From an uncultured Candidatus Saccharibacteria bacterium (GTDB lineage: Bacteria > Patescibacteriota > Saccharimonadia > Saccharimonadales > Saccharimonadaceae): a stretch of DNA of 64,000 nucleotides. The notes beneath the pieces were generated by a model, which was not told the DNA's origin, ran no database searches, and worked only from the letters and a program-made list of their open reading frames with translations. Position numbers and translations under genes: made by a program. Shown in pieces: positions 45,342 to 64,000 of the stretch. The number at the start of each line of letters is the position of its first letter. Position 1 is the first letter of the stretch. The stretch spans positions 1,592-65,591 of the forward strand of contig CBDEJQ010000029.1 in the NCBI GenBank assembly GCA_965240135.1, given 5' to 3'.

Positions 45342-45349
45342 TAGATATT

Positions 45350-47171: not shown

Positions 47172-47555
47172 TTATGATCCTGATGCAATCTTACCAATAA
47201 CCATATTGACGATTGCGTATGCCAAAATTGCAACCACCAAACCAACAATTGCGTACAAAACTGTATTCTTAGCCGCCTGAACCTTATTACTATCACCGGC
47301 TGAAGTAGTGTAACGAATACCACCCCAGATAAGCATAATAACGCTCAATGCACCAACAGCAAACAAGAATATGTTCACAAACTGCTTAACTAAAGATTCA
47401 GGGTCTGTAGATACCTGATCAACTCCCGTTCCTTGCGCGCTACTAACACCACCCTTTAGAGTAAAGTCTCCTTCAGCGCTTGCAGCTGGAGCTACAGCCA
47501 AAGCAACAGTTGGTACTACCAGTAGTCCTGCCAAGATTAATTTTAATTTATTCAT
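47172..47555 (-). CDS. VirB2/TrbC-like pilin-like protein, paralog 2
   Basis: 127 aa. Signal peptide (…APAASAEGD). Core: NIFLFAVGALSVIMLIWGGIRYTTSAGDSNKVQAAKNTVLYAIVGLVVAILAYAIVNMVIG. AAGGAG SD. Confidence 0.65.
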   Translation of the reverse strand: MNKLKLILAGLLVVPTVALAVAPAASAEGDFTLKGGVSSAQGTGVDQVSTDPESLVKQFVNIFLFAVGALSVIMLIWGGIRYTTSAGDSNKVQAAKNTVLYAIVGLVVAILAYAIVNMVIGKIASGS

Positions 47556-47631
47556 TGTTATTTTCTCCTTGTTTAATGATATTACTATTATATATTTTTA
47601 TCTGTTATTTGTAAAACTAATTATGGATTTA

Positions 47632-48009
47632 TCATAGTCGCTTTATAACCATATTGACAATCGCCCATGCCATAATAGCCACAATTAACCCAACTACTGA
47701 ATATATAAGTGTACTCTGAGCAGATTTTGTCTTTGAAGCGTCACCAGATGAAGTAATGTAACGAAAACCGCTAAAAATAATCATAATAACAGACAAAATA
47801 CCCACAGCCCAAAGTAAAATATTAACTACTGTTTTTATTAGACCGCTATCACCGTCAATACTTTTGCCTTGCATTTCCGATGTTGTAGCCGTATCAATTC
47901 CTTTAGATACCTGAGCAGAAACACTGCCTGACAGGGAAGCGGTAGATAAAACCGACGCCCCAAACACCGCACATGTCATAATTGCTATTGATATTATTGA
48001 TTTTTTCAT
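47632..48009 (-). CDS. VirB2/TrbC-like pilin-like protein, paralog 3
   Basis: 125 aa. Signal peptide. Core: NILLWAVGILSVIMIIFSGFRYITSSGDASKTKSAQSTLIYSVVGLIVAIMAWAIVNMVIK. AGGAG SD. Confidence 0.65.
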   Translation of the reverse strand: MKKSIISIAIMTCAVFGASVLSTASLSGSVSAQVSKGIDTATTSEMQGKSIDGDSGLIKTVVNILLWAVGILSVIMIIFSGFRYITSSGDASKTKSAQSTLIYSVVGLIVAIMAWAIVNMVIKRL

Positions 48010-48017
48010 ATTTTCTC

Positions 48018-48398
48018 CTAATTAAACCTATTAAATACAAAATTAACAATTGCCGATGCGAATAACGATACAGCTAAACCGACTACCGCATATAAAACAG
48101 TATTCCTGGCTTTTGCAGCTTTTTGGGCGTCACCACTAGAAAGTGCAAACATAATACCGCCAATAACTATCATAATAATCGAAATAGCACCAACGGCCGT
48201 AAGTAGAACTTCAACGATAGTTTTTATAATACCGTTAACTTGAGTCTCACCACTGCCCCTATTTTTACAATAGACAGAGTTTTCATTTCCATTTGAGCAA
48301 ATATTAATACCGTTAGCTGCGGATGCCGCTGGAGCAAACACGCCAAGGAGACCAACCATTAACATTCCAGCAGTCAGAATTTTCGTAAAAATCTTCAT
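48018..48398 (-). CDS. VirB2/TrbC-like pilin-like protein, paralog 4
   Basis: 126 aa. Signal peptide and a Cys pair (NICSNGNENSVYCKN). Core: VLLTAVGAISIIMIVIGGIMFALSSGDAQKAAKARNTVLYAVVGLAVSLFASAIVNFVFN. Confidence 0.65.
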   Translation of the reverse strand: MKIFTKILTAGMLMVGLLGVFAPAASAANGINICSNGNENSVYCKNRGSGETQVNGIIKTIVEVLLTAVGAISIIMIVIGGIMFALSSGDAQKAAKARNTVLYAVVGLAVSLFASAIVNFVFNRFN

Positions 48399-48399
48399 C

Positions 48400-48684
48400 T
48401 TAAACCTTTCCTATAATATACTTTGTTATAGCAATCGCACTAGCAGCAATAACCAGACCAATGACTGAATATAAAATAGCATTCTTTGCGCTGGCGGTTT
48501 TGGACGGATCGCCAGAGGACAGGGAATAATTTATTCCAGCAATAATCACCACAATAACAGCTATAATACCAGCCACCCAAAGCGCCAGATCAACAAACTT
48601 CATAATATCTACATCGTTATTCTTTGGCACGCCAAGATCACCTGCCTCTCCTAATAATCCAGCAAAAAATTCTATATATCTCAT
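48400..48684 (-). CDS. VirB2/TrbC-like pilin-like protein, paralog 5 (no obvious signal peptide)
   Basis: 94 aa. Core: LALWVAGIIAVIVVIIAGINYSLSSGDPSKTASAKNAILYSVIGLVIAASAIAITKYIIG. A short non-hydrophobic N-terminus precedes it. Confidence 0.6.
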   Translation of the reverse strand: MRYIEFFAGLLGEAGDLGVPKNNDVDIMKFVDLALWVAGIIAVIVVIIAGINYSLSSGDPSKTASAKNAILYSVIGLVIAASAIAITKYIIGKV

Positions 48685-48685
48685 T

Positions 48686-49123
48686 TTATACCCCTATCTT
48701 TGATGATATAAAGTTGACTAGCGCAACAGAGGCTAGAGCGATGACTAAACCAATCGCTGCGCTCATAATAGTTTTTCGTCCATGAGCAGCCTTATCTGGA
48801 GCGCCGTTACTGGTCATCATCAAGAAACCACCGTACATGATATATCCAACAGTCACATAGCCAATAAGTTGCAGCAAATCATCAACGATATTAAGCGCGA
48901 TTTTCCAAATATAGTTAGCTTGAGAATTAGTATCTGCGCCTGGACTTTTAAGGGAACAGTTATGGTCATTATTAGTTAAGCCGCTATACCATGGTTTTAA
49001 CGTTAAAATCTTTCCCTTATTAGAGCATGCATCATCTTCCGCAAAAGAAATGCCCGGGAAAGTTACACTCGCCCCAAACGACCCCATAATCATTAAAGAC
49101 ATCGCTATTATAATCTTTTTCAT
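48686..49123 (-). CDS. VirB2/TrbC-like pilin-like protein, paralog 6
   Basis: 145 aa. Signal peptide and a Cys pair (ACSNKG...HNCSLK). Divergent core: LIGYVTVGYIMYGGFLMMTSNGAPDKAAHGRKTIMSAAIGLVIALASVALVNFISS. AGGAGG SD. Confidence 0.6.
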   Translation of the reverse strand: MKKIIIAMSLMIMGSFGASVTFPGISFAEDDACSNKGKILTLKPWYSGLTNNDHNCSLKSPGADTNSQANYIWKIALNIVDDLLQLIGYVTVGYIMYGGFLMMTSNGAPDKAAHGRKTIMSAAIGLVIALASVALVNFISSKIGV

Positions 49124-49494
49124 TAATCGAAAACTCCTCCTGGAATAATAAAGTTGGTAATTGCCACCATAAACGCAAACATTATTACCCCAATGACAGT
49201 ATTCGTCCAGACTTCACGTGCTTTTTTTATCTTATCAGGGCTTCCTTCGGAAGTAGTATATAAGAATGCCCCATATATAACAGCACCAACCGCCGCAACT
49301 CCAATACCAGCAGTTAAAATCTTAATGACTTGCTTTATTATATTAATGATTGCTGTACTGCCCTTACCTTCACAAGAAATAATAGAGGTTTCCGCACCAC
49401 CACACTCAATAGCCAAAGCTATTCTGGGTATAAAAATACTTCCTGCGATTACTGTTGCGATGAATATACTGATTACAATATTTCTTTTTGTCAT
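49123..49494 (-). CDS. VirB2/TrbC-like pilin-like protein, paralog 7 (first gene of the operon)
   Basis: 123 aa. Signal peptide and a Cys pair (IECGGAETSIISCEG). Core: GIGVAAVGAVIYGAFLYTTSEGSPDKIKKAREVWTNTVIGVIMFAFMVAITNFIIP. Confidence 0.6.
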   Translation of the reverse strand: MTKRNIVISIFIATVIAGSIFIPRIALAIECGGAETSIISCEGKGSTAIINIIKQVIKILTAGIGVAAVGAVIYGAFLYTTSEGSPDKIKKAREVWTNTVIGVIMFAFMVAITNFIIPGGVFD

Positions 49495-49597
49495 AAAATT
49501 TTCTCTTATACCTAAATTGTAAAATAGTCAAGCGAAAAAAGCAAACATTTTCCTTGAAAAGACAGAAGTAATCTGATAATATAAGGGATATTGATAT

Positions 49598-49675
49598 GCG
49601 CTCGTAGTGAAGTTGGCCTATCACGCCTCCCTGTCACGGAGGAGATCGCCGGTTCGAATCCGGTCGAGCGCGCCA
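49598..49675 (+). tRNA. tRNA-Asp (anticodon GUC)
   Basis: GCGCTCGTAGTGAAGTTGGCCTATCACGCCTCCCTGTCACGGAGGAGATCGCCGGTTCGAATCCGGTCGAGCGCGCCA. The anticodon loop is CTGTCAC. Confidence 0.9.
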
Positions 49676-49684
49676 CAGATAATT

Positions 49685-49709
49685 CACCCCCCTGGCAGGG
49701 TGTTTTTTT
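49685..49709 (+). terminator. intrinsic terminator after tRNA-Asp
   Basis: Stem CACCC / GGGTG, followed by TTTTTTT. Confidence 0.6.
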
Positions 49710-49838
49710 ATGAAAAAATATTCCACATTTATTGCATTTATGTACAATTTATGTTATGATATCGCCAATTGGACTGAAAAGTCTAAGGAGTTTTACAATA
49801 AAATACCTGACAATGTCAGAGAAAGGACCCCAAGCGTT

Positions 49839-50942
49839 ATGGTTTATAACCCTAATAACCCAAGCGGTTCATCAAAAGAAATACCTAGGAGGAGGTTCCT
49901 GCTAGGAGCAGGCGTAATCGCCACAGCAACAGCACTTATGCTGGGTGGCTGCGGAGAACAACAAGACAGTCCACAACCTACATATAGCAGCTCAGAAGAA
50001 GCAAGCACTCCTACCCCTACTTCAACCGAATCAACGCCAACGGCACGTCGTACTCCAGAGGAAATAAAAAATTTAGAGTTCACAGGATTACCTGAATTAG
50101 TTAGTACAATAAACGATTTAGATCCGAAAAAAGATCACAATAAAACACGTGAAGCTTTAATTGAGTTTATAAATGAGAACATAAAGGATGATTCCGCAAG
50201 AATAGATATAGATGAATATGGAAGAGTCTACACTTCTAAAGAAAATATTCCTGAAACTATGAAAAAAGTGGGAATGAATACAGTGCAAGGCTTATCTATA
50301 ATATCAAAACTATATGGAAGCAGTGTTCAATATGATTATCCTCTGCAAAAAAAAGATGCCGAAAAAATAATGGATGCATATGTTGAAAACTTTACGGTAG
50401 GATCAGGAAGAAAATCCCTAAATGATCTGATACCTAGTATAGCAAGTTATCCTATGAATCAAGGAAATAAACTATTTAAGCAGCTTGAGGTAGGTGCAGC
50501 TCTAACGCCTATATACGAAGCTGAACCAAAGGATGAAAAAGGCTCTTCTGTCATCTTTCGACGCAATAATCTTAATACTACAGAGGGCGAAACAAAAGAT
50601 CTACTACATAGCGATGGCTTAAACTGGACTAGTACATTTGCATATCAGGGATTTTTCCCTAAAGGTACTACCCCAGAAATATCAGGAGATACATTAACAG
50701 AAGTGGTTGTATTTGCAAGAACCACTAAAGAGAATGACCCTACATTATTAAATACTCCCGCAACAGAACAACAGGGAAATGCTACTCTATATGAGACAGA
50801 TGAGGGAATGTATATTACAGGAGTAATCGGAGCCATCAGAGATGTGAGCCAAGACAGTAAAATACCAACTCTCGTAAAGGGACAAGAGGTTCCAGCTAGT
50901 CAAGTTCCTCAGATAGAAAACTATTTTAAGTCTATAAAGTAA
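49839..50942 (+). CDS. putative lipoprotein, first gene of the T4SS-like operon
   Basis: From MVYNPNNPSGSSKEIPRRRFLLGAGVIATATALMLGGCGEQQ. It has a positively charged n-region with RRRF, a hydrophobic core and a lipobox L-G-G-C, followed by a Ser/Thr/Pro linker. An alternative upstream ATG at 49710 abuts the terminator and lacks an SD. Confidence 0.6.
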   Translation: MVYNPNNPSGSSKEIPRRRFLLGAGVIATATALMLGGCGEQQDSPQPTYSSSEEASTPTPTSTESTPTARRTPEEIKNLEFTGLPELVSTINDLDPKKDHNKTREALIEFINENIKDDSARIDIDEYGRVYTSKENIPETMKKVGMNTVQGLSIISKLYGSSVQYDYPLQKKDAEKIMDAYVENFTVGSGRKSLNDLIPSIASYPMNQGNKLFKQLEVGAALTPIYEAEPKDEKGSSVIFRRNNLNTTEGETKDLLHSDGLNWTSTFAYQGFFPKGTTPEISGDTLTEVVVFARTTKENDPTLLNTPATEQQGNATLYETDEGMYITGVIGAIRDVSQDSKIPTLVKGQEVPASQVPQIENYFKSIK

Positions 50943-50963
50943 ACTAAAAAACAGATCTTGCAT

Positions 50964-50997
50964 AAACACCTTCATATATGATTAAATGAAGGTGTTT
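50964..50997 (+). other. perfect 12-bp hairpin between the lipoprotein gene and the first VirB6-like gene
   Basis: AAACACCTTCAT-ATATGATTAA-ATGAAGGTGTTT, followed by ATGTTTATT. The 3' arm carries the GAAGGTG SD for ATG 50998. Confidence 0.6.
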
Positions 50998-53508
50998 ATG
51001 TTTATTAGTGGGTGTGGTAGCAAATATAATTCTAAAAAAATAATTGCTTATTTGTTTATAAGTATTTTATTTATTATGTCAGCATCTATATCTATTATGT
51101 CTAAATCTGCGCTTGCTGAGGATATAGGAAAGAAAATAGAAAATGGCACCGCTTCATGTAAGGATGCGTCTAAAGGGGCTGGCGGCAAATCATGGAGAGA
51201 AACCAGAACTTTACATGGAAACCAAGGTTGGTGGTGGTGCGAATCATCAAGCGGCGAACGATTTCGACTAGATGAAATCCTATGCGCCGCAGGATATGAT
51301 ATAGAAGATAAAACCGAGGACTACAGGTCTCACTCATACAGAAAAACTCGTTGCATCAAAAAAACAGAAAACTCTAATAAAACTAGTACTATAGATAAAA
51401 GAGCTATAGCGCTAGCTAACACAGCAGGGCAATCAAAACTAGAGGGTGTCATACTTCCGAAAATTACAGACACACCATGGTTTAAGACGCTATCGGATAA
51501 AGATAAGCTAGATTCTGGATGCGTGGATAGCGGTGGCGGTAAAATCACTTGCGACGAACATGCTAAGATTACTTTGACAAAAGGATTAGTGGGCACATGT
51601 ATAGCTAGCGCTCGCACAACCGTTGCAAATCGTCCAGACGGACAAGATAAAAGTAATGAACAAATAGATAAAGCTTTTACCGACTGTATAACTGGAAATT
51701 CTGGACTAGACAAAGATACGGTAAATAATAATAAAACACCTATTGCTTGGAACGACATAGATAGTTATATAAGGGAAGAAGACAAAAAAGAAGCAGAAGC
51801 AACCGAAAAAAGTAAAGCTGATGAAGCAAAAAACTCATGCGGCATCGGTGGAATGGGATGGCTTATTTGTCCTCTAATGACTTTTATGGGGGAAATTGCT
51901 GATGCTTCTTATTCTGTAATATCACAGTTTCTTAATATTAACCCTGCTATCTTCGGTGAAGGATCCGACGCGGTAGGAGCAAAACAGGCATGGAACTTCT
52001 TTCGTGATATAGCAAACGTCATATTTGTATTACTGTTTTTATGGGTAATTTTCTCACAAGTCAGTAGTATTGGCATAAGTAATTACGGCATTAAAAAAAT
52101 CTTACCAAAATTAATAGTGGGAGCTATATTAGTAAACTTATCGTTTTATATATGTCAATTAGCCGTCGACTTATCCAACATCCTTGGCTTTACACTAAAA
52201 GAAGCTCTTGAAGGATCAGTATCTAGAGTTGGTGGATCGTCTTCAAATTCAGAAATATTGAGTGGTCTCGGCGCAGCAGTTGCTGGTATTCTAGTTCTTA
52301 CAGGAACAGTGCTATTTGCAGCGCTTGCAGTCAGTATACCAACACTACTATCTCTGATGTTAGTGCTGCTTGTCGTGCTTGTCATACTAATAGTTAGACA
52401 AGCAGCTATAGTGCTCCTAATATCAATTGCGCCCCTAGCATTTGCAGCTTGGCTCCTGCCAAACACCGAAAGTTTATTTAAAAAATGGGTATCGATGTTT
52501 AGGGGACTACTGATGGTTTTTCCTATAATATCTCTTTTGTATGGAGCTGGTAAATTAGCAGGGGCAATATTGGCGACAACAGCCACAAGTGACTCAAATG
52601 ACACTGCGATAACTATGCAGTTTGCAGCCTTGGCGGCGTCTATACTTCCATTAGGCGCTACGCCTTTCGTGCTAAAGAGCTCCCTAAATTCATTGGGCAG
52701 TATTGGCGCAAAGATAGGAAAAATGAGCGCCAATGCACACGGTCGATTCGCTGGAAATGTAAAGGGTGTAGCGAAAAGACGTGTTGACAATTCTGTTATT
52801 GGTGATACAAAAAGAAAATACTCAGACTTCATGGATAGAAAACGCGCAAGCATGCGAACGGGTAAATTTGCGACGTGGAGAGACAACAGTCCAGTCGGTC
52901 GATTCATGGGCTGGGATAAAGGTGGAGCACGCGCCCGCGCAACTGTAGCTAAAGCGTTCGAAAGTGATGTTGAAAACGCATCCACAATGTTACAAGGCAA
53001 GACATCGAAAGAGATATCCGATATAGCCAACGGCACAAACACAAATGCCTCAAAAGCTATGCGCGCGGCGGCTATTGATCATACTATGGCTAATGGTAGT
53101 TTTGAAGAACGTATGAATGTATTGAGTAGTCTAAAAGGTGCAGATACCTCTATAAAACAACGAGCAATTAAAGCTGCATACGCAAAGAAGGATAATAATA
53201 TCATAGGAAATGGATTAGGAGATGCTATACTCAAAGATGAAGTTGGAAATATGACTGATCTAGAGAATATGATGATAGATAATGCCGCATCTGGAAACTT
53301 ACAACCAGAACACCTAGTGCAAAACGCAGCGGCTACCAAATGGATAGTCGACACATCGGTTAAATCATATACAAATAATCTGGATAAACAAGCTAAGAAA
53401 GCCCTGAATAACTTTATAAGCACCGCTAAGGCTGCTAGGTCTAATCCAAACACTGCAAAAAATATAAACGGAAAAATAGATAGCACATTCCGTAAAGTTG
53501 GCGCTTGA
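50998..53508 (+). CDS. VirB6/TrbL-like large polytopic membrane protein, paralog A
   Basis: About 836 aa. It has a signal/TM segment, a ~290-aa Cys-rich ectodomain, the conserved motif SCGIGGMGWLICP, at least 6 TM helices (…SSIGISNYGIKKILPKLIVGAILVNLSFYICQLAVDLSNI…) and a ~290-aa basic C-terminal domain. The family assignment rests on topology and operon position only. Confidence 0.5.
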   Translation: MFISGCGSKYNSKKIIAYLFISILFIMSASISIMSKSALAEDIGKKIENGTASCKDASKGAGGKSWRETRTLHGNQGWWWCESSSGERFRLDEILCAAGYDIEDKTEDYRSHSYRKTRCIKKTENSNKTSTIDKRAIALANTAGQSKLEGVILPKITDTPWFKTLSDKDKLDSGCVDSGGGKITCDEHAKITLTKGLVGTCIASARTTVANRPDGQDKSNEQIDKAFTDCITGNSGLDKDTVNNNKTPIAWNDIDSYIREEDKKEAEATEKSKADEAKNSCGIGGMGWLICPLMTFMGEIADASYSVISQFLNINPAIFGEGSDAVGAKQAWNFFRDIANVIFVLLFLWVIFSQVSSIGISNYGIKKILPKLIVGAILVNLSFYICQLAVDLSNILGFTLKEALEGSVSRVGGSSSNSEILSGLGAAVAGILVLTGTVLFAALAVSIPTLLSLMLVLLVVLVILIVRQAAIVLLISIAPLAFAAWLLPNTESLFKKWVSMFRGLLMVFPIISLLYGAGKLAGAILATTATSDSNDTAITMQFAALAASILPLGATPFVLKSSLNSLGSIGAKIGKMSANAHGRFAGNVKGVAKRRVDNSVIGDTKRKYSDFMDRKRASMRTGKFATWRDNSPVGRFMGWDKGGARARATVAKAFESDVENASTMLQGKTSKEISDIANGTNTNASKAMRAAAIDHTMANGSFEERMNVLSSLKGADTSIKQRAIKAAYAKKDNNIIGNGLGDAILKDEVGNMTDLENMMIDNAASGNLQPEHLVQNAAATKWIVDTSVKSYTNNLDKQAKKALNNFISTAKAARSNPNTAKNINGKIDSTFRKVGA

Positions 53509-53554
53509 CACCTTCTCTTGACTTTTTCCATCAAAAATGCTAATATAACCATGA

Positions 53555-56071
53555 ATGGAGTGGTTAATTTTATACAGGCAACTCCTTAGTGCGAAGTTGC
53601 GTTGGTTTATATTGCTGATAGCAGGATTGCTGGTGAGCATTTTTTTCAGCACTTTCTTACATTCCACCTCTGTTTATGCCGCAGATGCAAAATGGGATGG
53701 TCATGATTTAACCTATTCTAATAAAAAATATACCAGGCTAACAGATAATAACAAAGTCAAGAAGTTTAATTTACCTGATAATTCGCTTGTTTATATCAAT
53801 GAAGATAAAAATAAAAAAGAAGTTAAAGTTATTTACTTCCCATCAGGCGAAATATCTTCACTAAGTTCCGCAACCTATGCGGTTTATTCTTTTACACCAC
53901 CAGATACTTATGATCAAACCGATACTTCAACTATTTCAATTGACCCTCCCTCAGAGAATTCAACCAGCACTTCCTGTGATGTACAGGGAATAGGTTGGTT
54001 TATCTGTCCAGTTTCTAACTGGCTGGCTGATGGTATTGATTTTATGTACAGTGCGCTTCAGCAATTCTTAAAAACTAAGCCATTAGAAACAACCAACCAA
54101 AATAGCGGAATTTATCTGGCGTGGGTCATTATGCGAAACATTAGCAACGTGGCGTTTATCGTGGCGTTTTTGGTGATTATCTACTCACAATTGACCTCTG
54201 TAGGAATTAGCAATTACGGCGTTAAAAAAATGCTCCCTAGGTTAGTGATTGCAGCGGTGTTAGTCAACTTATCATTTACGATTTGTGCTATTTTGCTTGA
54301 TTTATCAAACATAGCCGGCTACGCTTTCCAGGATGCCTTCATGGGAATTAAGAATACCATATCCACCGTAGGAGAAAATACAAGTACATGGACATGGTCG
54401 GAAGTTATCAGTACAGCACTGTCAAATGGAGCGCTGGCGGTAGGAGCAGGATACGCCGTATCGCTAGCACTTACTACGGAATTATTACCAATGCTAGTAC
54501 CTGCCGCGGCATTAGCTGGCTTAACTTTACTCCTCATACTCCTAATCATGGCCGCTCGTCAAGCGCTCATTATTATATTAATCATAATTTCACCTTTAGC
54601 CTTCGTTTGTTATTTACTTCCTGGCACAGAAAAGTGGTTTAAAAAATGGCGAGATTTATTCTTAACAATGCTAGTATTTTTCCCAGCATTCGCTGTAGTA
54701 TTCGGTGGAGCTCAACTGGCGGGAATAATAATTATACAAAATGCCTCTGGTCCAAATGGCGCAATAATGCATGTACTAGGCATGCTGGTTCAAATAATAC
54801 CTTTGGCTATAACTCCCCTAATTATGAAGTTCAGCGGTGGAGTATTAGGTAAGTTCGCTGGATTTGTTAACGATAAGAATAAGGGCTGGTACGACAGGAC
54901 TAAGAACTGGTCTAAAGATCGCCGTGAGACCATTAAAAACAAGAAGTTGGCTAACCCCAATATGGCGCGATTCAATCCAAATCGTTTACGCCGTTGGGCA
55001 GATCATAACAGTAGATTACGTAAAAAAAATCTGGAAACTTCGCAGAAAAATGCCGAGAATTCATTTAGAGATACAGCCAGGTATAAGAAGTCAGACTTAG
55101 ACGCCAGACAGGCTTCCAGGCGTGCAGATCTGTTATCCGCACAAGATGACAATCGCTACACCGAAGCTACGCTGGGTCACACACCAACTGATACGTATGG
55201 AAAGTACGATCGTGCTCTACGAGCTAAGTTCACTAAATATTCAAATTGGCGAGACGCGCAACAAGCTCAATTTATGTCAGACATTAAAGACCTAGAAACC
55301 GAAATTGCAACAGCAGGTCTGATTAAGAATAATGCTCAACGTCAGCAGCATAGTGAATTTGCAGAGCAATTGATAAACAGCAAGGAACTTCGAGAGAAGG
55401 CTGGCGGCAATGTATTCAAAGACGAGAATGGCAACCTAATTGGAGCAAATGCCGCTCTAGCTTCAGCCATAGCAACCAGCCGTAGCGAATACGCTAAGTC
55501 GGTCGACGAAGCTCGCCAAATTATAAAGCACTACAAATTGGATGCAAAACAGAGGCAGGGATTAGCCCTGAACAAGAAATCTATACCCCTTCCTGGTGGA
55601 GTTAATTTATCTGGAGATAGTATATTCGTACGTGAAGCTGCAATTGAAGAACAGATTAAATACGGTACCGCAACGGAAGTTGCCGAGCTTCTTAGTGAAT
55701 TGCCACCAGAATTCTACTCTTCTGCAGCCTCAGCACTAGCAGAATCTGGCGTAAAGAATAAAGCGTCATTCTTGGGCGGTAAACTTGTCGATGATATGCT
55801 GAAAGGTGATATTAATAACAGAAGTGACCTCATGAATTACTTTGCCAATTGGCTAGAGGGTGGTAAATATAAACCAGAAACTTTAGCGACTACGGATGCT
55901 GACGCTGTTAAGTTATTGATGGAAGCTGTAAATACCACCTCTGTGATTAGTAATAAAAAACGTCAAGATCTTAAGAAAGTTATCAACACAATTCTTACCG
56001 ATAAGAGGTTGTCAGCCAATGCAACTGATGCAACTAAAGAGCAATTTGAAATTTTCCGCAACATGCTATAA
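53555..56071 (+). CDS. VirB6/TrbL-like large polytopic membrane protein, paralog B
   Basis: 838 aa with the same architecture. Motif SCDVQGIGWFICP. TM block …TSVGISNYGVKKMLPRLVIAAVLVNLSFTICAILLDLSNI… is clearly paralogous to the upstream gene. The cytoplasmic C-terminal domain is long. Confidence 0.5.
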   Translation: MEWLILYRQLLSAKLRWFILLIAGLLVSIFFSTFLHSTSVYAADAKWDGHDLTYSNKKYTRLTDNNKVKKFNLPDNSLVYINEDKNKKEVKVIYFPSGEISSLSSATYAVYSFTPPDTYDQTDTSTISIDPPSENSTSTSCDVQGIGWFICPVSNWLADGIDFMYSALQQFLKTKPLETTNQNSGIYLAWVIMRNISNVAFIVAFLVIIYSQLTSVGISNYGVKKMLPRLVIAAVLVNLSFTICAILLDLSNIAGYAFQDAFMGIKNTISTVGENTSTWTWSEVISTALSNGALAVGAGYAVSLALTTELLPMLVPAAALAGLTLLLILLIMAARQALIIILIIISPLAFVCYLLPGTEKWFKKWRDLFLTMLVFFPAFAVVFGGAQLAGIIIIQNASGPNGAIMHVLGMLVQIIPLAITPLIMKFSGGVLGKFAGFVNDKNKGWYDRTKNWSKDRRETIKNKKLANPNMARFNPNRLRRWADHNSRLRKKNLETSQKNAENSFRDTARYKKSDLDARQASRRADLLSAQDDNRYTEATLGHTPTDTYGKYDRALRAKFTKYSNWRDAQQAQFMSDIKDLETEIATAGLIKNNAQRQQHSEFAEQLINSKELREKAGGNVFKDENGNLIGANAALASAIATSRSEYAKSVDEARQIIKHYKLDAKQRQGLALNKKSIPLPGGVNLSGDSIFVREAAIEEQIKYGTATEVAELLSELPPEFYSSAASALAESGVKNKASFLGGKLVDDMLKGDINNRSDLMNYFANWLEGGKYKPETLATTDADAVKLLMEAVNTTSVISNKKRQDLKKVINTILTDKRLSANATDATKEQFEIFRNML

Positions 56072-56100
56072 TTATCATATTTTGATATAATATAAGCAGT

Positions 56101-57012: not shown

Positions 57013-57021
57013 GTGGGGTTT

Positions 57022-57897
57022 ATGCAACCAGAGTTACAAAATCAACAATCTTATCAGCAGGTTCCGCAAACCAATGCGGCTCTTCCTGGTGTCCCTCAGC
57101 AGCCATCAGTAGCAATTGGTTCGGGACCAAATCCAACCACACCATCTCCAGATAAAACCCCTGACGACAAGAAGCAAAAAGGACCAATTAGCACTCAGAA
57201 TACGCTACTTTTCTCTGAAATGCGCGAAAATATGATTATCATGAGCGATGGCAGTTTTCGGGCGGTAGTGGAATGTGAATCAATTAACTTCGACCTTATG
57301 AGTTCACGCGAAAGAGAGGGGATTGAGTTCAGTTATCAAAACTTCATCAACTCTCTATATTTCCCAATTCAAGTTCTTATTCGTTCACGCCGCGTGGATA
57401 TCGGTCCGTATCTGGACAGATTGGCTGAAATTCGCCGCAATCAAGACAATATGCTTCTCAACGTCCTAATGGACGATTATATGGATTTTATTGATATTCT
57501 GGCACAAGAAGCAAATATTATGGATAAGAGTTTTTATGTTGTCGTTCCGTATTATCCAGCTGGCGAGGAAAATGCTTTCAAACAACAGACTAAGGGATTA
57601 TTCAATAGCTTCTTCAGCGGAAAAAAAGAGGCAACCGTAACAAAAATTGACCAAGTTACTTACACCAAAGCCAAAGATGAAATTAAAAACCGCGTCGATT
57701 CGGTTATGAACGGACTATTCCAAATGGGCGTAAAAAGTTGGCAATTAAATACCAGGCAACTGGGTGAGTTGTTCTACACTTCATATAATCCCGACACGTC
57801 GTCACGTGAATCGCTAGAAGGAATTGACCCGAGCGAGCTTACGACCACTTATGTAACTAAGGGAACTGGTCCATCACCGAGAGGAGGAAGGTTATAA
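57022..57897 (+). CDS. VirB4 N-terminal-domain-like protein (separate ORF)
   Basis: A Q/P-rich leader precedes LLFSEMRENMIIMSDGSFRAVVECESINFDLMSSREREGIEFSYQNFINSLYFPIQVLIRSRRVDIGPYL. This resembles the extreme N-terminal region of Gram-positive VirB4 ATPases. The stop overlaps the next ATG (ATAATGG). ATG 57022 has an AGGTGGGG SD. Confidence 0.5.
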   Translation: MQPELQNQQSYQQVPQTNAALPGVPQQPSVAIGSGPNPTTPSPDKTPDDKKQKGPISTQNTLLFSEMRENMIIMSDGSFRAVVECESINFDLMSSREREGIEFSYQNFINSLYFPIQVLIRSRRVDIGPYLDRLAEIRRNQDNMLLNVLMDDYMDFIDILAQEANIMDKSFYVVVPYYPAGEENAFKQQTKGLFNSFFSGKKEATVTKIDQVTYTKAKDEIKNRVDSVMNGLFQMGVKSWQLNTRQLGELFYTSYNPDTSSRESLEGIDPSELTTTYVTKGTGPSPRGGRL

Positions 57898-59756
57898 TGG
57901 CAAAGAAGAAATTAGATGCCGTTGATATTGCCGCTCAGCAACGAGCTCGTGAACAAGCCGAAGTCGAACAGGCCTTCTTAACCGGCGTTCGAACTCTGCG
58001 TGATTTTATCGCGCCAAGTAGTATTGAGCTTCATTCTGACCATTTTCGACTTGGCTCAAAATATGGTCGCACGATGTATGTTTATGGCTATCCTCGTCAG
58101 ATCTACACCGGTTGGCTTAGCTCAATCATTAACATCGACGAAGTGCTGGATATCAGTATGTTTATTTATCCAGTCGATACGCAAATTGTCCTGAATAACC
58201 TGCGCAAAAAAGTTACTCAGCTGGAAGCAACCATGAATATCAACATGGAAAAAGGAAAGGTGCGCGATCCAGGCTTGGAGGCAGCATTGCAAGACGCCGA
58301 AGAATTGCGCGACCAGCTGCAAATTGGCGCCGAAAAGTTCTTCCGCTATGGCTTATATATTACGCTTTACGCCGACAGTTTGGATGAATTGAATTTTATC
58401 CAGCATAAAATTGAAACTATTTTTGGTCAGCAATTGGTGTTCTCAAAAGTGGCCTCCAGCCAGCAGGAACAGGGATTGAATAGCTCTATTCCACAATTGA
58501 CCGATGAACTACAGATTCGCCGCAACATGAACACTGGCGCAATTTCAACCAGCTTCCCGTTCACTTCAGCCGATTTAACGGACAATAAGGGCGTACTTTA
58601 CGGAATTAATATGCATAATAATGGCTTGGTGATTTTTGACAGATTCTCTCTGGAAAACGCCAATATGGTCGTGTTCGCTAAGTCTGGTGCTGGTAAATCA
58701 TTTACCGTTAAGTTGGAAGCTTTAAGAAGTATGATGGTTGGGGCTGACATTGTGATTATTGACCCAGAAAACGAGTACCAAAAACTATGCGACGCGGTTG
58801 GTGGCAGTTATATTCGATTGAGCTTAAGTAGCGACACGAGGATTAATCCGTTTGATTTGCCGCGTGTGATTGACACTGATGAGGCAGATGACGCACTGCG
58901 AGCCAACTTAGTTACTCTACACGGACTACTCAGGCAAATGCTGGGCGGCGCAGGAGTAGGAGTTGGCGGGCAAGTCGTAGCAGGATTATCACCAGCGGAA
59001 GAAGCTGATATTGATCAAGCGTTAATCGACACTTACGCGCGCGTTGGCATTACTTCAGATCCATTGACGCACAATTCTACGCCACCGACGATTTCCGACC
59101 TATACGACACCTTGCTTCACATGGGCGGAACTGGCCCAAGTCTGGCTCAGCGACTCCGCAAATTTACCTCTGGAACGTTTGCGGGAATATTTTCACAACA
59201 GAGTAACATTGACATTAATAATAATATGGTTGTCTTTAACATTCGCGACTTGGAAGATGAACTGCGACCAACAGCGATGTATATTGTTCTGAATCATATC
59301 TGGAATATTACGCGCACCGACCAGAGAAAGCGTATGTTGATTGTTGACGAGGCTTGGCAATTAATGAAATATGACGATTCTGCCAACTTCTTATTCTCAT
59401 TAGCCAAGCGCGCCCGCAAATATCAATTAGGATTAACGACAATCACGCAGGACGTGGAAGACTTCGTCGGAAGTAAAATGGGGCGAGCAATCGTTTCCAA
59501 CTCCTCAATGCAACTACTTTTGAAGCAGTCTGCCAGCGCCGTTGACGTTTTAGCGCAAGTGTTTAAATTGACAGATGAAGAGCAGAAACGACTAGCTAAT
59601 TTCCCGGTTGGACAAGGTTTATTCTTTGCTGGACAAAATCACGTTCACATCCAGATTCAGGCTAGCGATACCGAATATAATTTGATCAATACAAATCCCG
59701 TATCACAACAAATAAAACCGTCAGATTCACCGATCGGCGGCTATGGAGCGGTGTAG
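57897..59756 (+). CDS. virB4: VirB4-family T4SS ATPase (middle and C-terminal ATPase part)
   Basis: 619 aa. It contains YGYPRQIYTGWLSSII (VirB4 mid-region), Walker A FAKSGAGKSF and Walker B MLIVDEAWQLM, plus downstream KYQLGLTTITQD. Confidence 0.8.
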   Translation: MAKKKLDAVDIAAQQRAREQAEVEQAFLTGVRTLRDFIAPSSIELHSDHFRLGSKYGRTMYVYGYPRQIYTGWLSSIINIDEVLDISMFIYPVDTQIVLNNLRKKVTQLEATMNINMEKGKVRDPGLEAALQDAEELRDQLQIGAEKFFRYGLYITLYADSLDELNFIQHKIETIFGQQLVFSKVASSQQEQGLNSSIPQLTDELQIRRNMNTGAISTSFPFTSADLTDNKGVLYGINMHNNGLVIFDRFSLENANMVVFAKSGAGKSFTVKLEALRSMMVGADIVIIDPENEYQKLCDAVGGSYIRLSLSSDTRINPFDLPRVIDTDEADDALRANLVTLHGLLRQMLGGAGVGVGGQVVAGLSPAEEADIDQALIDTYARVGITSDPLTHNSTPPTISDLYDTLLHMGGTGPSLAQRLRKFTSGTFAGIFSQQSNIDINNNMVVFNIRDLEDELRPTAMYIVLNHIWNITRTDQRKRMLIVDEAWQLMKYDDSANFLFSLAKRARKYQLGLTTITQDVEDFVGSKMGRAIVSNSSMQLLLKQSASAVDVLAQVFKLTDEEQKRLANFPVGQGLFFAGQNHVHIQIQASDTEYNLINTNPVSQQIKPSDSPIGGYGAV

Positions 59757-59773
59757 AAAAATAGCGAGAAAAT

Positions 59774-62700
59774 ATGGCACGAGTTGATTACACGACGGAT
59801 TCCGAAACTGACAGCAGATTAAATCCTGCTGAGCAGGCTAAGTTTGATCAAATCTCGGCTGGTTCTGACAGTGGGTCAGAGTTAAGTGATCGCGAAAAAG
59901 ATGTCATAAACGACCTTGAATCTCAGTTTGACAATAAAGATTCGGACTTAAATCCTAGCCAAAACGATTCCGCCAGCGCTGCCGTTAATAACCAAGAATC
60001 TTCCGTTCCAGGCAACGGTTTTTATCAGCCGTCTGCGGGAAAGAAGAAAAGTCCAGTAACATTCAAGTCTTTGCTGAAAAAACGCGGACCAATTGCAGCC
60101 ATTGCTGGAACACTGGGACTAGGTGGTGGAATTATGGGAATATTTCTTAGTCCAGCAACGATGTTGCAAAATATAATGGAAAACTTTACCCAAAAAAACG
60201 ACTCCGCCTCAATTGTTAAAGAAGTTCGCATGAAAAAGGTCATGAATAAAATGATTGACGCCGGCGATGATGCGGGAATTTGTAAAAGTAAAAAAATACG
60301 CTGCAAAACAGGACGACTTTCCAACAGAGCTCTTAAGAAATTCAAGAAATCCGGATTAATACCAGTTGATGCTAATGGTAAAGAAATGGACGTAAAAGGA
60401 AGAGGATATCCAGAAAAAAACCCAACTCACTGGAAAATAGAAGGAGTAAACGACGGAAAGCCTATCGAAGCATCGAAATTAAAAGACGAATTGCTCAAAA
60501 AAGAGAATCGTAAAATTGCCAGTAAAGTCTATGGAAGGGCAGGCTTATTTAATATGCGTTTTCGTTCCTGGACAGGAAAACATATAAGTAGGCTTTACAG
60601 TAAATTCAACCTTAAAAGAAATAGTGCCATTTCAAAAATTGATAAAAAACTTGGGATAAAAGAAAGAAGAGAGAAATTAAAAGAAAAGCTTCCAAAGTTC
60701 GAAGAAGGGCGTGCTATTGGAAATATTAGAGAAGGTGTTAACAAATTAGGAGGTAAATTAAAAAAGGGAGGCTTAGCCTATACTATTAGCGCAGGAGCTT
60801 GTGCTGCAGTAAAAATTCCAAATCTTATTGCGGCAGGCGTAGCAGCAATTCAGTTAGCTCCACTATTAGGTCTAGTTATGGATGTTGTCCTATCCCCTGG
60901 ATCACAAGCTAAGGCCTCTGGTCTAGGTAACCAGCCTGTTACGGCGTTATTATTCGGGCAAAAAGCTCTAGCTGCCGAATCTACAGGAGGCAGTGGATTC
61001 TCTCAAGAAACGATGGAGACAATCGGTACAATGCTAACCGAAAGAGGTAAAATGGAAGGGTCTGAAAATACCGAAGGATCAGCCCTAGATTCTCCTTATC
61101 TTCTAGCAGCAATGGGAGTTAATAGTAATAAGCCGGGAATCGCCAAAAATTATATTCCAGGATATTCGGTAGCTACGAATCCTATAGTCCAAGGCTTCAA
61201 TGAAGTTAAAAAGGCTACTGACGGTGTATGTGATTATATATTAAGTCCAGTTGCCATGTATGCCTCTATGGCAATAGAAGCAGCAGTCTCAGCCTCTACT
61301 GGTGGTATAAGTGCAATAATTAGCTGGGTTGGTAAGGCAGCGCTATCTGAAGTGATTAAAAAAGTACTCGAATATGCAGTTGGCGAGCAGGTAAAAAATA
61401 TCCTCACAGAATTAGCAAAAAGTCTCCTTACGCCAGACAAGGCTCAATACAAAGACCTGGGAGATGCACTCGGCGTTGGTGCTGCAGCATTCTTTTCAGC
61501 AGGCTCTATGGGACAGATGCTACCAGGACTTAAAATGAGCCAATTGGCAGAATTCAATGGAATCCAAATAGCAAATGAAGAGTTCCAAAAAGAAATGGAC
61601 ATTGCTTCGTTAAGTCCATTTGATACATCAAGTAGGTATACATTCTTAGGCAGTATATTCCATAATATGGGTAATATGATGATGGCTAATGGGACTTATA
61701 GCAAAACTCCAGTAGCAATGCTGTCCAATATTCTCAGGCTACCTTCTATGGCACTATCTTATTCATCCACTGCAAAAGCAGCAAGCGGTATGTATTCTGA
61801 TAAATATTGCGGATACGCAAAAGACTTTTCTATGGGTAGCGGATCATCGGAAGATCCAGCAATAAACTTAGCTGGTATGCCATGTAGTGGTATTACAAAG
61901 AGTCAAGCCAACATGTCAGTAGAAGAAGCTATTCAAATCGCCGAAGACGAAGGATGGATAAAGAAAGATACAGATATTCCAGATGGTGCAGATATATCCG
62001 ATCTCATGACTAGCGGATATATAGTTAAGGATACACCTCTTTACGATTTCATTGAAGATTGTAGCACTGCAGAAAAAGGTGAATATTGGTTCAATAGTGG
62101 CGGATGTACAGCACCAACAGATTCGACACAGACAACATCATCTACCGCACCAACATATAAAGATAATGAAAATAAAGATATTACTGACCAATCTTTCGGA
62201 GCTGATAATTCCGCCAAACAATACGACGACAAGAAGCTTTCCGCAATGTCAGTATTACTAATCGACTTCCAGATTGCCCAATCAATTAATGGCGAAGATG
62301 ACGAAGAAGAAGCTCCTTCAACCACAGCTAAAGCTCCAGATAATGGCGAGGCAATTGGCGAACCACAATTAGAGGAAGCACAACAAGACGGATGGGGAGG
62401 CCATAGTAACGGAGAAATTCCAGATTCAGAATTGCAAACTCTATCTTTCTCGCCAGGCAATAAAATGAATAAGAAAGCTGCGGCGGCCATGGAAGAAATG
62501 AATAAAGCGTACAAAGCTGATAACGGGTCAGACTTAACAATTAATGAAGCGTATCGAGATTGTGCAACACAAATTAGATATAGAAAAGAACTAGGGGAAA
62601 AAGCAGCTCCAGCTCCTCCATGTATATCAAACCACGGCTGGGGTCTTGCTGCAGATATTGAAGTTGGCGCGTTTGGGTCTTCTACATACAATTGGCTGAA

Positions 62701-62800
62701 GGCTAACGCTCATAAATACGGATATGTACATCCTGCCTGGGCTGAACCAGGTAGAAGAAATCCCGAACAGTGGCACTGGGAGTATGCAAGGAAGGTCTAA
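59774..62800 (+). CDS. large polytopic protein with C-terminal M15 (VanY-like, LAS-family) peptidoglycan peptidase domain
   Basis: 1008 aa. It has an acidic disordered N-terminus and several hydrophobic segments. The C-terminus carries SNHGWGLAAD (SxHxxGxAxD) and PEQWHWEY (ExWH). This is the position occupied by the cell-wall hydrolase in Gram-positive T4SS operons. Confidence 0.65.
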   Translation: MARVDYTTDSETDSRLNPAEQAKFDQISAGSDSGSELSDREKDVINDLESQFDNKDSDLNPSQNDSASAAVNNQESSVPGNGFYQPSAGKKKSPVTFKSLLKKRGPIAAIAGTLGLGGGIMGIFLSPATMLQNIMENFTQKNDSASIVKEVRMKKVMNKMIDAGDDAGICKSKKIRCKTGRLSNRALKKFKKSGLIPVDANGKEMDVKGRGYPEKNPTHWKIEGVNDGKPIEASKLKDELLKKENRKIASKVYGRAGLFNMRFRSWTGKHISRLYSKFNLKRNSAISKIDKKLGIKERREKLKEKLPKFEEGRAIGNIREGVNKLGGKLKKGGLAYTISAGACAAVKIPNLIAAGVAAIQLAPLLGLVMDVVLSPGSQAKASGLGNQPVTALLFGQKALAAESTGGSGFSQETMETIGTMLTERGKMEGSENTEGSALDSPYLLAAMGVNSNKPGIAKNYIPGYSVATNPIVQGFNEVKKATDGVCDYILSPVAMYASMAIEAAVSASTGGISAIISWVGKAALSEVIKKVLEYAVGEQVKNILTELAKSLLTPDKAQYKDLGDALGVGAAAFFSAGSMGQMLPGLKMSQLAEFNGIQIANEEFQKEMDIASLSPFDTSSRYTFLGSIFHNMGNMMMANGTYSKTPVAMLSNILRLPSMALSYSSTAKAASGMYSDKYCGYAKDFSMGSGSSEDPAINLAGMPCSGITKSQANMSVEEAIQIAEDEGWIKKDTDIPDGADISDLMTSGYIVKDTPLYDFIEDCSTAEKGEYWFNSGGCTAPTDSTQTTSSTAPTYKDNENKDITDQSFGADNSAKQYDDKKLSAMSVLLIDFQIAQSINGEDDEEEAPSTTAKAPDNGEAIGEPQLEEAQQDGWGGHSNGEIPDSELQTLSFSPGNKMNKKAAAAMEEMNKAYKADNGSDLTINEAYRDCATQIRYRKELGEKAAPAPPCISNHGWGLAADIEVGAFGSSTYNWLKANAHKYGYVHPAWAEPGRRNPEQWHWEYARKV

Positions 62801-63258
62801 TGAATAAAGAAAATAAAGTCATATTAATATCATCCGTATTATTTTTAGTAAGTATTACGGTAACTTTCCTTATTGTTAAAAACCCTGACAGTAGTCAATA
62901 CACAACTATTCTGTCATCATCTCAAAATGCCAACGAGAGCTCAAATAGTCAAAATAATACTCACGGGCAATCTTCAGAGCAAAAAGCTATCATCGAATTG
63001 CTAAACTCTACTTCCAGTACCTACGGTAATCGTGAATTAAAAAAATACTCAATAGTAAAAGAACAGGGCGAATTTAAGTTGGTTACTTTAGAAATTTATA
63101 GCGAGAAAATTAAATCTACTTATGACGTATACGCAATTCTAAGAAATAATTCGGTCGTAACGGGTGTTAATGATAGAAAATCCTCAGACGCCTTAAAAAA
63201 TATTGGTGTTCCCACAGATATTATAAACGAATATAAAAGGAACCAGTCTGATGTATAA
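62800..63258 (+). CDS. small bitopic membrane protein (in the VirB8/PrgL position of the operon)
   Basis: 152 aa from MNKENKVILISSVLFLVSITVTFLIV. AAGGAAGG SD. The ATG overlaps the upstream TAA. The functional guess rests on synteny only. Confidence 0.55.
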   Translation: MNKENKVILISSVLFLVSITVTFLIVKNPDSSQYTTILSSSQNANESSNSQNNTHGQSSEQKAIIELLNSTSSTYGNRELKKYSIVKEQGEFKLVTLEIYSEKIKSTYDVYAILRNNSVVTGVNDRKSSDALKNIGVPTDIINEYKRNQSDV

Positions 63259-64000
63259 AAAGCTATCTATCGTTCTTTGCTTTGCTGTATCTTTTGCTAT
63301 TACTATGCAACCAGTATCTTTGGCGGCAGAATATCCCGATTCGTATGTAACAAACGATATTCTTTGGTATAAAGAAAATGATTCAACAACTTGTTCCGGA
63401 TCATCTTCTAATGGAGTGTCAGGATCTGATAATCAAGAGAAGATTTGGGGGTATTTACGCAACGCAGGATTAAGCGCTGAACAAACAGCTGGCGTGATGG
63501 CTAATATTCAAGCAGAATCCGGATTTAGTCCCACTAGACACGAAGTAGGCCAAGGATGGGAGTCTGGAGGTTGGGGACTCGCCCAGTGGACGTTCGGAAG
63601 ACGAACGCAGATAGCTAATAAAATACCATCTGAATTAAAAAAATATTACAGCCAAGAATATGGTGGTGCGCCTAACGACAAGGGTATGGTCGATTCTATT
63701 CCAGTAGAAGATAATGACAAACTATTAATCTTCGAATTAGAGTATTTAGTGCAAGAGGGAAAGGAAAGACCGGTCACAGCTTCTGGATTTGGTACAGCTT
63801 CGAACTCATGGGAATTGTTAAAAACCCTGAAGACAGTTGATGACGCCACTGTTTTTTGGCATGACGATTTTGAAAAATCAGCCATGACAAAAGAGCAGGT
63901 TAAAAATATACGCGGTACCGCCGCTCAAAAAATCTATGAAAGATTTAATGGTACAGGCGGAAGCGGAGGAGGATGCTCTTCATCAAATGGTGGTGACTTT
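63251..64000 (+). CDS. secreted phage-tail-lysozyme-like peptidoglycan hydrolase (3' end beyond the window)
   Basis: My own translation gives MYKKLSIVLCFAVSFAITMQPVSLAAEYPD...EKIWGYLRNAGLSAEQTAGVMANIQAESGFSPTRHE...GGWGLAQWTFGRR. It has a signal peptide and the ..N.QAESGF..GWGLAQW pattern of tail-tip lysozyme domains. ATGTATAA overlap with the upstream gene. Confidence 0.6.
   Translation, partial: MYKKLSIVLCFAVSFAITMQPVSLAAEYPDSYVTNDILWYKENDSTTCSGSSSNGVSGSDNQEKIWGYLRNAGLSAEQTAGVMANIQAESGFSPTRHEVGQGWESGGWGLAQWTFGRRTQIANKIPSELKKYYSQEYGGAPNDKGMVDSIPVEDNDKLLIFELEYLVQEGKERPVTASGFGTASNSWELLKTLKTVDDATVFWHDDFEKSAMTKEQVKNIRGTAAQKIYERFNGTGGSGGGCSSSNGGDF

Follow-up and report, generated by a model that had tools for sequence, protein, structure and literature searches.

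A 64,000-nucleotide stretch of contig CBDEJQ010000029.1 (positions 1,592 to 65,591, forward strand; assembly GCA_965240135.1) from an uncultured Candidatus Saccharibacteria bacterium, hereafter the window, carries a type IV secretion system (T4SS) between position 47172 and its right-hand end. A set of VirB2-like pilin genes and an operon of core secretion genes diverge from one intergenic region, and the locus is very probably a chromosomal, vertically inherited Saccharibacteria T4SS in a Candidatus Nanosynbacter strain of the human mouth. The system has already been described (McLean et al., 2020; Wang et al., 2023; Quinonero-Coronel et al., 2025; 2025 FEMS review), so finding it here is a correct rediscovery: the window, whose strain is closely related to TM7x, holds another copy of the published locus. 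The T4SS is among the few molecular handles on the epibiotic life of ultrasmall Patescibacteria. No earlier T4SS had been reported to be essential to its own bearer, and the system also contributed to the idea that monoderm T4SSs might build pili.

Core Operon

The plus-strand operon runs from 49839 to beyond 64000 and encodes, in order, a lipoprotein, VirB6-like proteins a and b, a PrgI/VirB3-like protein, a TrsD-like protein, a VirB4 ATPase, a protein with an M15 peptidase domain, a small bitopic protein and a lysozyme. The open reading frames (ORFs) listed in an initial annotation, made from the letters alone, are all present with the boundaries it gave; its operon products and their order are correct, but it left out the TrsD-like gene between those for PrgI and VirB4. 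Profile searches against T4SS families return matches to pilin, PrgI, VirB4, VanY and Phage_lysozyme2. The core is of Gram-positive type, MPF-FATA-like, with two VirB6-like proteins, a PrgI/VirB3-like protein, VirB4 and a separate TrsD-like protein.

VirB4 (57897-59756, plus strand as are all genes of the operon; 619 aa) is the most securely assigned component, with a TraG P-loop match at E 8e-28, a score of 384 bits against NCBIfam conju_CD1110 (cut-off 325) and the Walker A and B motifs GAGKSF and LIVDEAW that the initial annotation had recognized. The match covers conju_CD1110 profile positions 166-751, and the protein aligns to residues 223-772 of PrgJ (E 3e-42); because the alignments are limited to these parts, the window's VirB4 lacks the usual N-terminal domain. 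Its best relative of solved structure is the C-terminal domain of Thermoanaerobacter VirB4 (4AG5, E 2e-49), followed by TrwK of R388 (E 1e-5).

Directly upstream, the TrsD-like protein (57022-57897, 291 aa) is likely, from its profile matches, to be related to that N-terminal domain. Its matches to two NCBIfam profiles, TrsD (E 4e-4) and VirB4_plasma (E 4e-5), stay well under the respective cut-offs, and the VirB4_plasma match falls on the N-terminal part of that Mycoplasma VirB4 profile; a precomputed assignment adds PF26593 (TraC-like). A PDB sequence search and the local Pfam scan return nothing for this protein. A HMMER search of 1.84 billion representatives finds relatives in 2090 clusters, of which the best 150 listed are all 93-478 aa long, none of them a full-length VirB4.

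The PrgI/VirB3-like protein (56101-57012, 303 aa; Pfam PrgI E 3.8e-14, 53 bits, cut-off 27) combines a transmembrane hairpin with a long low-complexity tail. VirB6-like proteins a (50986-53508, 840 aa) and b (53555-56071, 838 aa) are paralogs, as the initial annotation proposed, with 32% identity over 468 aa (E 9e-56). Protein a matches Pfam TrbL/VirB6 at E 0.08 and has a precomputed PF19590 (TrbL_3) assignment on the near-identical protein of locus L002; b, the conserved paralog, has seven hydrophobic segments and the same assignment on an identical L002 protein. The local Pfam scan gives neither PF19590 nor PF26593 even at E <= 10, and both assignments come from the precomputed table for the L002 proteins.

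Cell-wall hydrolases of the system number two or three, here an M15 peptidase and a tail-type lysozyme. The former is the C-terminal domain (Pfam VanY E 1.1e-11, residues 896-1005; PDB D-Ala-D-Ala carboxypeptidases at E 0.01) of a membrane-anchored 1008-aa protein (59774-62800) which the initial annotation called polytopic, a generous term for a protein with two clear hydrophobic segments. The latter, a phage-tail-type lysozyme (63251-64000; Phage_lysozyme2 E 5e-25), is cut by the window end and has 405 aa in full, as seen in L002; it aligns to residues 497-677 of PrgK (E 1.6e-5). Between them lies a 152-aa bitopic protein (62800-63258) with one transmembrane segment, whose confident AlphaFold model (pLDDT about 90 at residues 60-150) consists of a helix and a four-stranded sheet. 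It is an accessory component, present in 14 of the 48 full-flank loci, from different Saccharimonadales species, that underlie the conservation counts given here, and absent from strains with an SLT+CHAP hydrolase. A VirB8-like identity was considered for it and is not supported: the best Foldseek match in the PDB is SnoaL/NTF2-like at E 0.03, with none at or below 1e-3, and hhalign to PrgL gives a probability of 0.6%.

Two alternative hydrolase modules occupy one position, either the 152-aa protein with Phage_lysozyme2 or an SLT+CHAP/NlpC-P60 enzyme without the 152-aa gene (L003, 14883-16825; L004, 14879-16809). Strains with the SLT+CHAP/NlpC-P60 enzyme also have a different middle region in the 1008-aa M15 protein. 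The SLT+CHAP enzyme is of the classical Gram-positive VirB1 type.

Pilin Genes

On the minus strand, from 49494 to 47172, six back-to-back genes encode products of 94-145 aa. All six exceed the gathering score of PF18895 (T4SS_pilin) in a Pfam scan, with E 1e-6 to 1e-12, and so does a seventh, orphan gene elsewhere in the window (7/7). Against TrbC/VirB2 (PF04956), five of the six array genes reach 13.7-20.0 bits, under the gathering score of 27.9, and the gene at 49123-49494 has no match; the array pilins belong instead to the sister family PF18895, with the same layout as PF04956 but scores short of membership. The NCBIfam family NF045849, pilin-like proteins of Mycoplasma integrative and conjugative elements (ICEs), is matched by all seven at E 5e-10 to 4e-4 (20-39 bits, cut-off 40). 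An alignment reveals a common layout, in agreement with a hydropathy scan: a signal peptide, a variable stretch, a hydrophobic helix, a conserved S-x-G-D/x-x-x-K loop and a second helix, with 24-44% identity of the other pilins to pilin A. The initial annotation had proposed a multi-gene VirB2-like family beside the core, which PF18895 in six adjacent genes bears out; its description of six proteins with a signal peptide and two transmembrane segments applies to all but the 94-aa product of 48400-48684, which has no signal peptide.

In the order of transcription, the array begins with pilin F (49123-49494, 123 aa; PF18895 E 1.1e-6, 29.0 bits, cut-off 26.6) and pilin E (48686-49123, 145 aa; E 7e-9), whose variable region is longer in the alignment and contains Cys. 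Pilin D (48400-48684, 94 aa; E 1.2e-12), the one without an N-terminal signal peptide, has two hydrophobic segments and a length that is invariant between strains. Pilins C (48018-48398, 126 aa) and B (47632-48009, 125 aa) match PF18895 at E 1.6e-9 and 1.7e-10 and NF045849 at E 3e-7 and 2e-9, respectively. The product of the last gene, pilin A (47172-47555, 127 aa), matches PF18895 (E 3e-12), TrbC/VirB2 (E 8e-4) and NF045849 (38.8 bits, cut-off 40), and the hydropathy scan gives it a signal peptide and two transmembrane segments. A 76-bp gap separates the pilin A gene from the rest of the array and holds a promoter-like site (47615-47587, 11 of 12 positions matched; consensus match only). Right after the last pilin stop, a strong terminator-like hairpin (47126-47157, minus strand) with a 13-pair stem and a T run, likewise a consensus match only, ends the array. 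Pilin A may be expressed separately and highly, which would make it a candidate major pilin. Pilins A and B at first seemed to have low identity among strains, but this stemmed from limiting the flanks to 10 kb; in loci centred on hsp20 they are 95-100% conserved.

The orphan gene (43835-44242, plus strand, 135 aa; PF18895 E 3.7e-9, NF045849 E 9e-5) is called in seven of eight near-identical strains and not in L093; by its position it probably corresponds to virB2 TM7x_00135 of TM7x. It is followed, within 43835-44796, by a gene for a 172-aa single-transmembrane protein, the pair being called in the same 7/8 strains and only the 172-aa gene in L093. Further along, a minus-strand ORF of 185 aa (44806-45363) is spurious, since it overlaps tRNA-Arg (44904-44980) and tRNA-Ser (45254-45341) genes. 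A comFC-hsp20 pair (45797-47070) borders the pilin array and is kept in the distant Saccharimonadales loci L026, L059, L068, L075, L078, L081-L083 and Southlakia epibionticum.

The small proteins have also been read in another way. McLean et al. (2020; PMC7427843), describing a TM7x region with six small signal-peptide proteins, likened these to pertussis toxin subunits on the grounds of signal peptides and arrangement, which would make them effectors or toxin subunits that the T4SS secretes in the manner of Bordetella ptx/ptl, and a TM7x transcriptome preprint handles them as effectors. For the window this original proposal is very improbable. All the small proteins match T4SS_pilin and have the VirB2 layout, apart from the single missing signal peptide; the matches of five array genes to TrbC/VirB2 and of all seven genes to the Mycoplasma pilin-like family, albeit below cut-offs, also argue for pilins, the quoted identity to pertussis toxin S1 is 11% (PMC7427843), and later papers name the small proteins pilins.

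Hypervariable Cassette

The pilin array and the operon diverge from a shared intergenic region, as the initial annotation held. The region contains a plus-strand tRNA-Asp(GTC) gene (49598-49675; ARAGORN, Rfam tRNA 64 bits), which is not part of the machine, and a terminator-like hairpin of its own at 49685-49702. With its hairpin, the tRNA gene (49598-49702) separates the array from the operon and directly precedes the hypervariable genes described below. An ATG at 49710 was considered as the start of the lipoprotein gene; because the tRNA-Asp hairpin directly precedes it, this start is unlikely and the one at 49839 is supported.

The lipoprotein (49839-50942) carries an RR-type signal and an LGGC lipobox, both recognized by eye, with Pfam TAT_signal at E 0.03 only. 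Its AlphaFold model has a pLDDT of 51 and no fold match in Foldseek, and hhalign results are not interpretable at such quality. VirB6-like protein a consists of a Cys-rich hydrophilic N-terminal domain, a polytopic core and a hydrophilic C-terminal domain. Between most strains whose VirB4 proteins are 99.5-100% identical, the lipoprotein, hypervariable in its mature part, is 27-36% and VirB6-like a 35-69% identical; VirB6-like b is 84-96% identical between strains. In 22-23 loci that depart from the window by at most 3 of the 619 VirB4 residues, the lipoprotein and VirB6-like a each fall into at least nine deeply diverged allele classes; the classes of the two genes co-vary for the most part but are reshuffled in places. 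Searching a database with the lipoprotein gives a bimodal result, with a class at 83-100% identity and then a drop to 28-30%.

The boundaries of the variation are sharp. An eight-locus comparison finds, in five of the seven other loci, ValRS and TsaD 98-100%, the six array pilins 88-100% and the orphan pilin 93-100% identical to those of the window; in the same five loci the lipoprotein is 30-36% and VirB6-like a 40-61% identical, and VirB6-like b is 87-96% identical in all seven. At the nucleotide level, 93-97% identity extends up to 49877-49893, no similarity is detectable across the mature lipoprotein (49880-50940), and a conserved island at 50940-51018 covers the lipoprotein stop and the start of the VirB6-like a gene; across the latter, similarity is either absent or about 70% until 85-95% identity resumes from about 53450-53510. 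The coding regions are thus swapped as blocks between conserved anchor sequences (49877/49893, 50940-51018 and about 53450-53510).

Replacement of whole blocks through homologous recombination is consistent with this pattern, together with some form of diversifying or frequency-dependent selection acting on the exposed end of the machine. We infer that the lipoprotein and VirB6-like a form the strain-specific part of the machine, and the lipoprotein and the N-terminal domain of VirB6-like a are probably surface-exposed. That the two genes serve the secretion system as an exchangeable specificity cassette is a tentative proposal, for which the odds are somewhat under even. If it is true, the cassette proteins would be the exposed, host-contacting or antigenic end, deciding which host strain is parasitised or enabling escape from phages or antibodies; host specificity, phage pressure or host immunity may have driven the diversity. 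A cassette so sharply delimited inside the operon points to a possible seat of host or immune specificity and offers a concrete target for allele swaps in the now genetically tractable Saccharibacteria. No description of a lipoprotein/VirB6 cassette was found in the papers searched, and the sections consulted of Quinonero-Coronel et al. (2025; PMC12102498) contain no strain-level hypervariable cassette; one earlier paper goes no further than counting a T4SS-related protein with the more variable part of the core genes in these strains.

Genomic Position and Conservation

Elsewhere the window consists of housekeeping DNA, as the initial annotation recognized, with genes for PolA, sigma-70, primase, ArgRS, CTP synthase, ribonucleotide reductase, GroEL, Mur ligases, TsaD, ValRS, ComFC and Hsp20. 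Within the assembly collection, 468 blocks are indexed with an identical VirB4, and one 733-kb contig is near-identical to the window. There the sequence beyond 64000 encodes the remainder of the lysozyme, two small proteins and then dnaN, dnaA, rnpA and yidC, with dnaA beginning about 9 kb after virB4. Neither a relaxase nor a coupling protein (VirD4/T4CP) nor an integrase was found among the window ORFs scanned or the genes called in the 10 kb downstream; where the initial annotation had allowed that a mobile-element module might lie just past 64000, dnaN and dnaA lie instead.

A relative of VirB4 is encoded in 566 candidate stretches of the GTDB species-representative genomes. The 80 loci kept have VirB4 proteins 82-100% identical to the window's and are nearly all labelled Saccharibacteria, Saccharimonadales or Nanosynbacter. 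In the full-flank set, PrgI, TrsD-like and VirB6-like genes are present and the layout is conserved in 48/48 loci, a distribution that is not patchy, and dnaN (47/48) and dnaA (46/48) follow within 10 kb downstream. The conservation of VirB4 exceeds that of a replication initiator: in nine distant loci VirB4 is 84-95% and DnaA 62-94% identical, DnaA being lower in each, and in the seven most distant of them the values are 84-87% for VirB4, 62-66% for DnaA and 46-61% for DnaN. That VirB4 is conserved beyond DnaA in every distant locus examined is a quantitative addition to the published picture. At closer range, among about 15 loci of related genomes, VirB4 varies by 0-3 amino acids and virB4, in most comparisons, by about 100-118 of 1857 nucleotides (range 78-186; about 6%), a ratio that points to extreme purifying selection on virB4.

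The gene families of the locus might suggest an integrated conjugative element, or the remnant of one, whose machine moves DNA between cells: VirB4, PrgI and the hydrolases are typical of Gram-positive conjugative elements, and all seven pilins resemble the Mycoplasma ICE family NF045849. This origin is scarcely credible given what surrounds the genes. The window and the 10 kb downstream have yielded no relaxase, coupling protein or integrase, the dnaN/dnaA synteny is identical in 46-47 of the 48 species-level loci, which comes close to refuting such an origin, and the extreme constraint on VirB4, beyond that on DnaA, also speaks against it. Base composition does not deviate either, the GC content of the locus (0.37-0.44) matching that elsewhere in the window (0.38-0.46); no integrase, fixed synteny in 48/48 loci and ordinary composition together are not what defines an ICE. 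Relaxases, moreover, turned up in only 103 Patescibacteria genomes in the survey of Quinonero-Coronel et al. (2025; PMC12102498). The evidence favours a vertically inherited, strongly constrained core locus over a mobile element, and the proposal of the initial annotation that the apparatus is chromosomally fixed and not a plasmid-transfer machine stands, with its position beside dnaA/dnaN and no DNA-processing module found.

A replication origin in the divergent promoter region was considered, as the GC skew changes sign near 49.5 kb, and was rejected: no DnaA-box cluster lies there. Three TTTTCCACA sites cluster instead in the dnaA-rnpA spacer of L002 (20577-20672), beyond the window, and the skew change is therefore better explained by the switch of coding strand. 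With an origin in the dnaA-rnpA spacer, transcription of the whole T4SS operon would run towards it and meet replication head-on; in S. epibionticum, too, the operon is convergent with dnaA-dnaN.

Possible Mechanism

Knowledge of the component families suggests how the machine would work. PrgI would anchor VirB4 and the TrsD-like protein to the membrane, and VirB4 would power a channel built on VirB6. The peptidoglycan would be opened by the two hydrolases, M15 peptidase and lysozyme, and the pilins, once extracted from the membrane, would polymerise to form a short pilus or conduit reaching the Actinobacteria host cell. In S. epibionticum, epibiotic growth needs T4SS genes including those for pilins (Tn-seq; PMC10633639), and the extreme purifying selection on virB4 is consistent with such a requirement. 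Because the locus is without coupling protein or relaxase, export of protein to the host is slightly favoured over transport of DNA.

The machine might alternatively work inward, taking up DNA or nutrients from the host as H. pylori ComB or archaeal Ced do. About 700 bp separate comFC from the pilin array, and the comFC-hsp20-pilin arrangement recurs in distant Saccharimonadales and in S. epibionticum; the missing coupling protein and relaxase are what a non-conjugative system would show, these bacteria are unable to make nucleotides or amino acids according to the literature, and VirB4 has a weak, P-loop-level similarity to CedB. This similarity amounts to 43 bits against a cut-off of 700, however, and comFC (SEML1_0021) is non-essential in the Tn-seq table (PMC10633639). 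A comEC deletion loses competence and stays viable while the T4SS is essential (FEMS review citing Wang et al., 2023), and DNA uptake via ComEC is therefore not the essential function. Inward transport is on balance unlikely.

Several points weigh against the reading of the locus as a Saccharibacteria T4SS that exports through a pilus. These pilins are not known to form a pilus, nor is a VirB5-like pilus-tip protein known. The evidence for essentiality comes from another genus. Among the components, no VirB8-like protein was identified by Foldseek and hhalign on the 152-aa protein and the lipoprotein, and the VirB6 assignment combines the local Pfam E of 0.08 with the precomputed TrbL_3. The link of the TrsD-like protein to the VirB4 N-terminal domain is weak at E 4e-4 and 4e-5, and its 31-sequence profile gives an hhalign probability of 0.15% against the N-terminus of PrgJ, in a plausible alignment register. 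Finally, Quinonero-Coronel et al. (2025; PMC12102498) place VirD4-like genes elsewhere in many Patescibacteria genomes; a distant coupling protein, beyond the 64-kb window, is therefore possible.

Comparison With Known Systems

Among the closest published counterparts is the locus SEML1_0004-0019 of S. epibionticum ML1 (Wang et al., 2023; PMC10633639), with which the window shares gene content and relative order. Wang et al. described SEML1_0006-0019 as a T4SS most like Gram-positive conjugative systems, without coupling protein or relaxase; in their Tn-seq data SEML1_0004-0019, pilin genes included, are essential except SEML1_0012, with SEML1_0013 non-essential at the first time point. Both loci have six divergent PF18895 pilins, two VirB6-like proteins, PrgI, a protein of about 290 aa, VirB4 (about 612 aa in ML1), a DD-peptidase-ended protein (about 1100 aa in ML1), a tail-lysozyme and two small exported proteins before dnaN/dnaA, and hsp20 with comFC on the pilin side. 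They differ in that ML1 has recF between dnaN and the locus, a longer lysozyme protein, and an RR-signal protein, the NTF2-like, non-essential SEML1_0012, between the two VirB6-like genes; in the window the RR lipoprotein comes first. The ECOD match of SEML1_0012 is 4EC6 (PMC10633639). The window's lipoprotein shares the RR-type signal with SEML1_0012 and might be its NTF2-like counterpart; its model, at pLDDT 51, is too poor for a fold comparison. The structure 4EC6 is the VirB8-like domain of pIP501 TraM.

Nanosynbacter lyticus TM7x, of the same genus-level group, has VirB4, VirB6 and PrgI-type genes together with its six small signal-peptide proteins, in a system found Saccharibacteria-wide (PMC7427843); the evidence from the window favours pilins over the effectors proposed for them there. 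On a broader scale, Quinonero-Coronel et al. (2025; PMC12102498) describe a Patescibacteria VirB4 related to MPF-FATA, with TrsD, PrgI and VirB6 alongside, arrays of 2-11 VirB2 genes that share about 25% identity with one another, hardly any relaxases, and proximity to dnaA; TrsD, remotely related to the VirB4 N-terminus, is the commonest Patescibacteria T4SS component. All the features of that survey are present in the window and nothing essential differs, and the window's VirB4 would fall in this Patescibacteria clade. The 2025 FEMS review treats the system as a distinctive newcomer to the T4SS superfamily.

Among well-studied machines, the MPF-FATA prototype Prg/Pcf of pCF10 (Enterococcus faecalis) has the gene order prgH (VirB6), prgI (VirB3), prgJ (VirB4) and prgK (hydrolase), which the window matches. 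The initial annotation was right about the order up to this point; its further step, a bitopic protein in the VirB8-like place, is not supported for an accessory gene found in 14/48 loci. NCBI assigns PrgJ to conju_CD1110, the family whose cut-off the window's VirB4 passes, and PrgK is a hydrolase with a tail-lysozyme domain, to which the window's lysozyme aligns. By contrast, PrgJ keeps its N-terminal domain in one polypeptide, whereas the window's VirB4 is without it, and pCF10 has the coupling protein PcfC, a relaxase, the adhesins PrgB and PrgC, and PrgL, none of which was found in the window locus. A preprint of December 2025 (bioRxiv 10.64898/2025.12.18.695078) identifies pCF10 PrgF as a VirB2-like pilus protein and finds such proteins in nearly every one of the more than 1000 Gram-positive conjugative plasmids it analysed, which challenges the premise of the initial annotation that Gram-positive systems lack VirB2. 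A direct likeness of the window pilins to PrgF was looked for and rejected, none being detectable (hhalign probability 1.9%).

The pilins find relatives in the Mycoplasma ICE, which encodes the pilin-like Mbov_0395 and the VirB4 protein Mbov_0397. The window pilins match NF045849 and its VirB4 matches NF045975 (276 bits, cut-off 590), all under curated cut-offs, so that these proteins are relatives of the Mycoplasma families and not members. The Mycoplasma genes, for their part, sit on a mobile element. Pairing of an MPF-FATA-type VirB4 with a VirB2-like protein is therefore seen in a wall-less monoderm element too.

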